A DNA stretch of 4,664 bases from Naegleria gruberi (GCA_000004985.1 GG739177.1); one strand, 5' to 3'. Positions 2,228 to 4,664 are shown, counted from the first letter of the stretch. The notes: a model not told the origin generated them from the sequence alone. Numbers and translations: made by a program.

Positions 2228-2833
2228 ATAATCAACTCGTTTTACCTCGATATTTCTGTGTTTTTTGTTCTCTTGGGCTTGCTAGATACGCAACCATTTG
2301 GCAAAAGGTGAAAAATCGCATAGGTTCAACTTAATTCTCTACAAAATGACGTTGGGACATTTGCATTTAATTCAGTAATTGTTGAGTATTTTGTATTTGA
2401 ATTGGTGTTAAACTTGTTAATTTTCTGTTGCTTAATAGCTGTGTTGAACATAATATTTATTAATATTATTTAGAAGGTGGAAGTGGTAATGCTTCTCACT
2501 CCACAAGTTATTTGCTTGTTGGCAGTGCTAATAGCCATGGATTTAAAGCCATTATTTTGATAATCGCATTAATCAACTCCATTTTTAACCCTTTAAAATA
2601 TTACGATTATCAAAATACAACGCCAAATTACTCTGCTTCCAACACTTTTCCGATGTATGAATCTATTTATCAAGATCATCAGGATAATCTTCAATGATAC
2701 TGAATTTAAGTAGATGGTGGAGGTACCATCTCTTGTTCATCAAGTTGAATCTTCCATCATTTGGTGAGGGAGCAACTTCTCCCTTTCATATTGTTTAATA
2801 AATTATTGTTATTATCATATAATGATACAATTC

Positions 2834-2862
2834 TTGTTGTTGTTTGTTGTTAATTGTTGTTC
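2834..2862. repeat. Imperfect (TTG)n / GTT-rich microsatellite
   Basis: cttgttgttgtttgttgttaattgttgtt is visible directly. Confidence 0.6.
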
Positions 2863-3279
2863 TTAATAGAAGCTGACAATTCCCCCTTAATGGTCATACA
2901 ACCACTGGGTTCTTCATATAAAGCATTTCTAGAAATTAAAGCTATAGCACTGTTGGTTCGGTGGTTGTATGTTGGAGCGTCAATTAAGGGACGAGTGATC
3001 GATTCAAGGTGATTTTACTAACTTATTCATTATTACCACCTTATTTTTTTAGATCTTCCTTAATACTTGACAATTTTAAAAGATATTGATACCACATATA
3101 TAATACTACATATAAACAACTCTATGTCAATTTCAATTGATTTAGCCAAGTATTCATTGATATAGAGTATGATCTGTGACATGATGTATTGACAACTTTA
3201 CAAATATTGATTTAAACAATATAGTTATTTAGAAGAGTCTTATTAATTTGTAATAAATATACTATTTTTCAATTTTCAA

Positions 3280-3610
3280 TTGTTGACTTGATGTACTTAA
3301 TTGACTTGTCTATTCTAAGGTACTTAGGTGACTTGAAGATACTGAGCCATCAATTTGAAACTTTCTCAGATTGTACTCCTCATCAAGAGGAGTGTATTCA
3401 TATTTGATACTAGTATGATATTTTGTAAACTGACTGAGATGGAGTGTAATCTCTTTTTTGAAATGTGATATTTTGAAAGATTGTTATTATTATCATATTG
3501 AATTCAATTCTAAAACTATGAAATTGATACCAGATGTAAAATAGTGTGACTAAACGTATTGGGTAAAGTTACAGAATGATTGGAATAACTTTCACTGAGA
3601 TGGAGTGTTC
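3280..3610. repeat. Degenerate local tandem/duplicated motifs (satellite-like intergenic DNA)
   Basis: Exact 15-mer actgagatggagtgt at 3433-3447 and 3594-3608, each preceded by [ag]tgatattttg (3417-3426, 3467-3477 approx.). ga[tg]ggagtgt[at] occurs x3 (3388-3397, 3438-3448, 3599-3609). tacttaattgacttg (3294-3308) matches tacttaggtgacttg (3320-3334). ttgacttg occurs x3. ttttcaattttcaattg is at 3266-3282. Confidence 0.5.
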
Positions 3611-3654
3611 ACTAGGATATATATAATGTTGATATCTGTTGAAGGGATTCACCG

Positions 3655-3673
3655 GCTTTTTTAACGGGATCCC
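3655..3673 (+). repeat. Left arm of a perfect 19-bp inverted repeat, gcttttttaacgggatccc
   Basis: Its exact reverse complement, gggatcccgttaaaaaagc, occurs at 4484-4502. The match does not extend by even 1 bp on either side. It contains a GGGATCCC 8-bp palindrome. Confidence 0.85.
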
Positions 3674-3705
3674 TCATAATTTGACAGGATCCTCCATTTT
3701 ACTTC

Positions 3706-3717
3706 CAAGCGCGCTTG
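3706..3717. repeat. Perfect 12-bp palindrome CAAGCGCGCTTG (GC-rich core in AT-rich DNA); possible dimeric protein-binding site
   Basis: The sequence reads identically on both strands. It lies 33 bp inside the left IR arm, next to two other 8-bp palindromes, GGGATCCC (3666-3673) and AGGATCCT (3687-3694). Confidence 0.4.
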
Positions 3718-4483
3718 AAAACCGTTACATTAAAAATTTAACAAATTCTAATTTACAGGTTAATTTCCACTCTTCAACAAACAACATCAACAAAAAAATA
3801 GGCAACGTGTTACGGGCAATACCACATCTCCTCTAGCAAGGTCCTTTCTCTTCATCATGCCCCACCACACTACCAGATAAGACTTGCAAGCAATACAGGA
3901 AGCTATCTTCCGTTCACATGGTTGTTGCCACTTCTGCTCTCATCACAGTTCTCTTTGAATGACCTGTTATGGTTCTCATGGAGGAGGAAGACATTCCCAT
4001 TGGTGAATATTGTGTTCCTGAACATACAACTACAACCAATATTGTTTTGGTTGTAGAAACAATAATAAAACTTAAATTTTTTAAATATTTGTTGTTGGAC
4101 TTTATTTGCTTATTTGGTACTCAGTCCGAAACAACCTTCCATTTCAGTTCCACTTCAACTGAGTTGAGTTTGAAAAATAGCTCAACTTTAACCCTGCATA
4201 TCTTTGTCCAGACAATAAATATCAACAAACCAATGATTGTGGTTATATTTCAAGATGTTTTGAGTACATATCTCGATATTTGGAGCTTGGCATATACTGG
4301 TTCTGGTTTTATTGGATTTTGAAATTTTCATATATGTTTTCACTCAATTGAGGTTTTCAATCGACCTACTACACATAAACTGCTGAAAACAATTCTGATG
4401 ATAGTTAACATACAGGCGCACACCATACAAGTTAAATTATGATGAATCACTAAGTAACTATTCTGTTGTGGGTCATCAAAGTT

Positions 4484-4502
4484 GGGATCCCGTTAAAAAA
4501 GC
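4484..4502 (-). repeat. Right arm of the 19-bp inverted repeat (partner of 3655-3673)
   Basis: gggatcccgttaaaaaagc is the exact reverse complement of 3655-3673. The arms are ~810 bp apart. Confidence 0.85.
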
Positions 4503-4664
4503 GGAGGGAGTTTGTGTATAGATATTGTGAACTGACTCTGTTGGATACCAAATCTATAAATATAACAAGACGAAAAGTGTCAACATTCAATTTCACATGC
4601 ATCTCACTTTAGAAAGTCATCATTATATCATCTAAATAGGTAGCACTTAAAGTGTCAGTGGAAT

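Follow-up and report, generated by a model that had tools for sequence, protein, structure and literature searches.

A perfect 19-nt inverted repeat pair on an unplaced Naegleria gruberi scaffold, possibly left by a small non-autonomous DNA transposon

The window analysed here is a whole unplaced scaffold of the Naegleria gruberi nuclear assembly, 4,664 bp long with a G+C content of 32%, and it is interrupted by a 50-N gap at 2178-2227. Long prokaryote-style ORFs are absent from the 4,664 bp. The left end of the scaffold cuts through a minus-strand ORF (3-662), which is 100% identical to XP_002668258.1 / EFC35514.1, a record entitled 'hypothetical protein NAEGRDRAFT_76832, partial [Naegleria gruberi]', and for which neither a paralogue nor a homologue was recovered among 5.8 billion proteins. 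Read by eye, this protein carries an F-box-like motif (LDQLPDELLLCIV) that has no Pfam match at E <= 0.1. Upstream, ORF fragments at 970-1746 on the minus strand appear BTB-like by eye (FSDFQIVF...LHVYKVNSEFFQTLF; LELLEIIIKYCYG), again with no Pfam match at E <= 0.1, and a protein search with the 124-aa BTB-like fragment returned no homologue. The F-box-like and BTB-like ORFs may be fast-evolving or decayed genes. No Pfam family was detected in nine ORFs of the window or in the six-frame translations of 2228-4664. Exact look-up of the window's ORFs in assembly and protein collections recovered neither a second assembly of the locus nor paralogous loci, and a similarity search of the window against plasmids and vectors found nothing.

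The feature that concerns us lies in the right-hand part of the scaffold, where two 19-mers that are exact reverse complements of each other face one another across 810 nt (Table 1). The first-pass annotation had reported this pair as bracketing an ~848-bp segment; its coordinates and sequence proved exact, the arms are 100% complementary, and the palindrome GGGATCCC was located in each arm, as had been described. Among the window's perfect inverted repeats the pair is the longest, and no third copy of the 19-mer occurs in the window at up to three mismatches. The accompanying assertion that such a match would hardly arise by chance was borne out by simulation: across 300 first-order Markov sequences the longest inverted repeat fell within 11-16 nt in 299, the one exception gave 18 nt, none reached 19 nt, and the expectation is 3.6e-4 per window. 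Calculated analytically for a 41-Mb genome of such composition, about 3.2 pairs of 19 nt, of whatever sequence, would be expected by chance. The arms, with G or C at 9 of their 19 positions, are less ordinary than that figure implies, since at least 9 G/C positions occur in 0.4% of chance matches; this lowers the expectation to about 0.012 per genome, so that pure chance is unlikely even genome-wide. Pure chance is thus an unlikely source of the pair with a genome-wide screen allowed for, and less so if many genomes were screened.

The identity between the arms stops abruptly at both ends, as the first-pass annotation also had it, and alignment of 200-400 nt around each arm, with and without gaps, returned the 19-mer alone. 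Its suggestion that the arms might be internal fragments of a larger repeat family is disfavoured, as the identity extends by 0 bases to either side whether or not gaps are admitted. The outer flanks run ...GGGATTCACCG on the left and GGAGGGAGTTTG... on the right, and when read by eye they contain no direct repeat of 2-11 bp, imperfect ones included, that abuts the outside of the arms.

Between the arms, the G+C-richer island noted earlier was recovered, its surroundings lying at 30-35%. The verdict that the interior holds no convincing ORF is roughly right in that no homologues were found, but it passes over a plus-strand frame (3633-4322) with only 2 internal stops in 230 codons. Stops as few, in any frame, appeared in 54 of 5000 shuffles (1.1%), and in positional base composition this frame is like the window's one real coding sequence. 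A homologue of its translation was absent among 5.8 billion proteins, and one of the 117-aa ORF that it contains was absent among 1.84 billion representatives. The frame may be a decayed, orphan or unannotated coding remnant. A tRNA scan of the interior was negative, and an Rfam search of it at E <= 1 returned no family, its one match being noise at 17 bits. Several palindromes cluster just inside the left end, namely GGGATCCC (3666-3673), GGATCC (3687-3692) and CAAGCGCGCTTG, with no counterpart at the right end. The word GGATCC occurs five times in the window (472, 1737, 3667, 3687 and 4485) against 0.6 expected, a roughly 8-fold over-representation; five copies were seen in 0 of 200 dinucleotide shuffles, and the excess remains when the two arm copies are counted once. 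It may reflect a genome-wide word bias or local history.

Table 1. Features of the repeat-bounded segment, in positions of the 4,664-bp window; roles assigned under the TTAA reading are putative
Feature	Position	Strand	Basis
Left arm of the perfect 19-nt inverted repeat, GCTTTTTTAACGGGATCCC	3655..3673	+	Sequence, repeat search
Right arm, GGGATCCCGTTAAAAAAGC, exact reverse complement of the left arm	4484..4502	-	Sequence, repeat search
GCTTTT, host DNA under the TTAA reading	3655..3660		Reconstructed empty site
TTAA in the left arm, candidate left copy of the duplication (or TA, 3662-3663)	3661..3664		Sequence; TTAACGGG located; role inferred
Candidate 828-bp body of a non-autonomous element, TTAA reading	3665..4492		Sequence; no protein, RNA or domain homologue
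TTAA in the right arm, candidate right copy of the duplication (or TA, 4494-4495)	4493..4496		Sequence; role inferred
AAAAGC, right half of the putative palindromic target flank	4497..4502		Reconstructed empty site
Low-stop frame, 2 internal stops in 230 codons, holding a 117-aa ATG ORF (3969-4322)	3633..4322	+	ORF scan, shuffles
12-bp perfect G+C-rich palindrome, CAAGCGCGCTTG	3706..3717		Palindrome search
G+C-richer island, 47%	3800..3990		Composition; no significant RNA structure, no homologue
Perfect hairpin, 10-bp stem and 7-nt loop (CTACAACCAA/TATTGTT/TTGGTTGTAG), mid-segment, followed by an A/T-rich stretch	4030..4056		Fold and repeat search

Because a target-site duplication is a direct repeat, an inverted repeat can conceal only one that reads the same on both strands. 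Each arm, read inwards, consists of GCTTTT, TTAA and CGGGATCCC, and its palindromic substrings are GC (arm positions 1-2), TA (8-9), TTAA (7-10), CG (11-12) and GGGATCCC with its inner parts (12-19). Two of these match known insertion chemistries: TA is the duplication made by Tc1/mariner elements and TTAA that of piggyBac (PMC4122938), while TTAA duplications are likewise made by Kolobok, which has been reported in Naegleria (PMC9587614). The first-pass statement that no target-site duplication flanks the pair consequently holds for the DNA outside the arms; it overlooks the palindromic TTAA or TA inside them as a possible duplication.

From this anatomy, the reading we favour, with a probability of a little under 40%, is that the segment arose when one small cut-and-paste DNA transposon of a non-autonomous kind inserted here, its TTAA (or TA) duplication lying inside the repeat. 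The 19-nt repeat would then be a composite of terminal inverted repeat, palindromic duplication and host flank. Its innermost part, CGGGATCCC (9 bp, 3665-3673) with its complement GGGATCCCG (4484-4492), would be the terminal inverted repeat of the candidate element; the two TTAA tetramers would be the duplication, with TA in their place should the element extend a further base in both directions; and the outer 6 bp on either side (GCTTTT and AAAAGC) would be host DNA, mutually complementary by happenstance, because the insertion would have hit the middle of a short, A/T-rich palindrome, GCTTTTTTAAAAAAGC. In this scheme, TTAA would have been cut in staggered fashion by a transposase whose gene lies at another place in the genome, the element's ends would have been joined to the cut, and gap repair would have duplicated the TTAA. 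The analysis establishes the anatomy of the pair, its departure from chance and the lack of a coding or RNA function and of an external duplication; from these we infer that the segment was mobile, how the 19-nt repeat divides among host flank, duplication and terminal repeat, and any superfamily.

This TTAA reading would explain together why no duplication is found outside the arms, why their identity ends abruptly and why they are perfect. The first-pass annotation had offered the terminal repeats of an old element as one option; a mobile element is indeed the best reading available, but the arms, being perfect, do not look old. Perfect arms point to a young element, whose duplication should be intact, and the only direct repeats available to serve as one are the palindromes inside the arms. 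The interior fits a non-autonomous element as well, in its length (828 bp, or 848 bp with the full arms), in a composition slightly off that of the left flank (35% G+C in the candidate body, 3665-4492, against 30%), and in having no Pfam, Rfam, tRNA or protein match. Joining the two flanks around one TTAA gives a reconstructed empty site, GCTTTT-TTAA-AAAAGC, that is itself the 16-bp palindrome GCTTTTTTAAAAAAGC; with the segment absent, the site is predicted to read CACCGGCTTTTTTAAAAAAGCGGAGGG. A preference for palindromic targets wider than the duplication is common to many cut-and-paste transposons, and from a single copy the end of an element and its target site are indistinguishable (PMC2577343); the same ambiguity between end and target arose for the Spy elements, where it was resolved only with empty sites (PMC4122938). 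In the TA variant, the dinucleotides at 3662-3663 and 4494-4495 would flank a 10-bp inverted repeat (ACGGGATCCC...GGGATCCCGT), TA being nearly uninformative in A/T-rich DNA.

Several points count against the TTAA reading. The candidate ends, 5'-CG...CG-3', fit the signature of neither Kolobok nor piggyBac. A terminal repeat of 9-10 bp is short for a transposase binding site, and on alignment the two ends share nothing more. The 6-bp palindromic host flank of the reconstructed site is improbable, at about 5e-4 a priori, and is itself a coincidence: of 46 TTAA sites counted across the window, all have palindromic flanks of 2 bp at most. The choice of TTAA by piggyBac is stated to be independent of flanking sequence (PMC2577343). 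Finally, about a sixth of random A/T-rich 19-mers would contain TTAA, so its presence in the arms is weak evidence.

The search for relatives covered viral, metagenomic and bacterial/archaeal DNA. The 19-mer had 0 matches in the viral collection and 0 in the metagenome collection, and its single match, in a Eubacteriales metagenome-assembled genome, has dissimilar flanks, consistent with the few chance matches expected in ~600 Gb. A 19-nt left-end probe designed on the TTAA reading (TTAACGGGATCCCTCATAA) found one metagenome match, in which 23 nt (TTTTAACGGGATCCCTCATAATT) are exact between OBEQ012110662.1 (510-532) and the window (3659-3681), with no further similarity. The matching stretch is an in-frame part of a 258-codon exon belonging to an unrelated gene of a eukaryote; the match is most likely a coincidence.

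Weak, degenerate direct repeats (~60%) lie on both sides of the segment, at 2011-2165, 3071-3191, 3404-3628 and 4516-4653. As a possible paralogous empty site, they gave an alignment score of 22 against a shuffle mean of ~15.5 and shuffle maxima of 23-26; with scores not above those of the best shuffles, we rejected them as empty-site evidence. The left flank also contains a perfect 15-nt direct repeat, ACTGAGATGGAGTGT, at 3433-3447 and 3594-3608.

Compared with characterised systems, the structure appears, on its sequence features, to most resemble in function a non-autonomous TTAA- or TA-targeting DNA transposon. Under the TTAA reading it would, as Kolobok and piggyBac elements do, carry TTAA immediately beyond a short terminal inverted repeat at either end of a small non-coding unit, and the host genus has been reported to carry both classes. 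Elements of the piggyBac type usually end in CCC...GGG and possess outer plus subterminal inverted repeats, whereas the ends here are CGG...CCG, the terminal repeat is 9 bp long, convincing subterminal repeats are lacking, and the structure is known from one copy. Many chance pairs in the window are at least as good as the best subterminal inverted match (3668-3685 / 4431-4448; 18 nt, 83%). Kolobok termini follow the pattern 5'-RR...YY-3' (PMC9587614), in contrast to the CG...CG found here, and TTAA is present but inside the inverted repeat. With regard to host records, fragments of the piggyBac class have been annotated in N. lovaniensis, repeats make up 5.1% of N. gruberi (PMC6125883), and MuDR has also been reported in Naegleria.

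Any likeness to miniature Tc1/mariner elements would lie in a TA that flanks a 10-bp inverted repeat, a length below 1 kb and the absence of coding capacity. Tc1/mariner terminal repeats usually span 20 bp or more, against 10 bp here, and TA is nearly uninformative at 32% G+C. As in MITEs generally, terminal inverted repeats stand at the exact ends (19 nt, or 9-10 nt under the TTAA or TA reading) of a small unit (828-848 bp) with no coding capacity, as judged by the lack of Pfam families in six frames and of protein homologues. In hAT elements, an 8-bp duplication flanks short terminal inverted repeats (PMC4122938). A hAT assignment, in which GGGATCCC would be the 8-bp duplication within a 30-bp palindrome, was rejected, the resulting inner ends (TCATAATTTGAC... 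/ ...GGTCATCAAAGTT) forming no inverted repeat. The Spy elements, which are related to PIF/Harbinger and known from invertebrates only, share with our segment terminal inverted repeats that lack a visible duplication and adjacent host bases that mimic an extension of the repeat. They insert between AAA and TTT without duplication and carry terminal GGANNNNG (PMC4122938). Membership of the Spy group was rejected, the flanks here being ...CACCG and GGAGG... and the ends GCTTTTTT, with neither AAA/TTT nor GGANNNNG. Since one defining feature of each is missing, we do not class the segment under Kolobok, piggyBac, hAT or Spy.

Among the alternatives, we rate as unlikely an origin without any mobile element, in which 19 nt were duplicated once in inverted orientation ~0.8 kb away by template switching during repair or replication, or by conversion from such a patch. 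This would account for a very short, perfect repeat that ends abruptly and lacks both a duplication and a family, and it calls for no transposon signature around an interior that is otherwise unremarkable and without homologues. It leaves unexplained the low-stop frame and the shift in composition of the interior, and the window offers nothing by which donor and copy could be told apart. The distance between a template-switch patch and its template, furthermore, is usually tens to a few hundred bases.

Rather unlikely, in our estimate, is a transposon whose terminal inverted repeats are the full 19 bp and which has no duplication, either because it inserts without one or because its flanks were swapped by recombination between copies. 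At 19 bp, the terminal repeat would be of a more typical length than at 9 bp, the perfect identity with abrupt ends would follow, and duplication-free transposons exist, Spy being an example (PMC4122938). The Spy signature of AAA/TTT flanks and terminal GGANNNNG is, however, missing where CACCG and GGAGG flank the arms; not even an imperfect duplication of 2-11 bp abuts them; and for recombined flanks, the window contains no second copy that could have been the partner.

A chance match, brought to the surface by the screening of many windows, is distinctly unlikely. A 41-Mb genome of this composition should by chance contain about three perfect inverted pairs of 19 nt that lie within 4.6 kb, no other property of the segment demands explanation, and the two exact matches in public collections are themselves chance. 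Set against this are the nine G/C positions, which bring the expectation down to ~0.012 per genome, and the failure of any of the 300 simulated windows to produce 19 nt.

We hold it very unlikely that the arms are paired protein-binding sites around ~0.8 kb, whether crossover sites of a site-specific recombinase or a regulatory or boundary motif. The dyad GGGATCCC in each arm would suit a dimeric binding protein, the G+C-rich palindromes GGATCC (3687) and CAAGCGCGCTTG (3706) cluster inside the left arm alongside the 8-fold excess of GGATCC, and the geometry is like that of bacterial invertible segments. In the Hin/Gin systems of bacteria and the FLP/FRT system of the yeast 2-micron plasmid, ~1 kb lies between short, identical, dyad-bearing sites in inverted orientation, with no duplication. 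Here, by contrast, no recombinase gene is nearby, a recombinase or any other domain being absent from the six frames of 2228-4664 and from the main ORFs of 1-2178. Each 19-mer also lacks the second arm of a two-armed site, the sequence across GGGATCCC being unrelated, and no third or degenerate copy of the motif occurs in the 4.6 kb. We know of no invertible-segment system in Naegleria, nor of anything comparable to Hin/Gin or FLP/FRT described in Heterolobosea.

An artefact of assembly or cloning, in which a fragment with the same oligonucleotide at both ends was built into a low-coverage mini-scaffold, strikes us as highly improbable. It would suit a window that is a whole unplaced scaffold with an internal gap, and the geometry of adaptor, insert and reversed adaptor, with abrupt ends and no duplication; CGGGATCCC also equals 9 of the 10 bases of CGGGATCCCG, a commercial BamHI linker. 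Yet the window has no similarity to plasmids or vectors, the outer half of the arm (GCTTTTTTAA) is not linker-like, and the DNA outside the arms shares its composition and short repeats with the rest of the scaffold. To our knowledge, the N. gruberi shotgun libraries were blunt-cloned without linkers. Barely credible, lastly, is the structural stem that the first-pass annotation had listed, a long-range RNA helix closing a structured non-coding RNA: on either strand the arms are indeed paired in the minimum-free-energy and centroid folds (z ~-3.4), but a z that is equal on the two strands is to be expected from the built-in 19-bp helix itself, the fold of the G+C island is no more stable than those of its shuffles (z -0.9), no Rfam family matches, and support does not reach beyond the arms.

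Should the transposon reading be true, the segment would add another non-autonomous DNA transposon, so far uncharacterised, to a genome already known for several superfamilies, which would be useful for Naegleria repeat annotation but not surprising. The inverted repeat is real, in our view, but of an ordinary kind; the most it may be is a small, unclassified DNA transposon of a protist genome. The wider lesson is one of method: a palindromic duplication (TA or TTAA) and a palindromic target preference can merge into an apparently duplication-free terminal inverted repeat, and with the duplication absorbed into the repeat, screens that demand an external duplication will miss such insertions. 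Wider interest attaches only to readings of low probability, a duplication-free element or a eukaryotic invertible switch. That the 19-mers are functional ends or sites of a kind new to Heterolobosea, belonging either to a duplication-free cut-and-paste family or to a ~0.8-kb invertible segment, seems to us a long shot; in the latter case, the segment would be switched by a site-specific recombinase encoded elsewhere, for instance by a tyrosine-recombinase element.

Elsewhere in the scaffold, a further inverted repeat of 19 nt, imperfect (89%) and with a spacer of 27 nt (TATTTTGATAATCGCATTA / TATTACGATTATCAAAATA), lies at 2553-2617 in otherwise featureless A/T-rich DNA.
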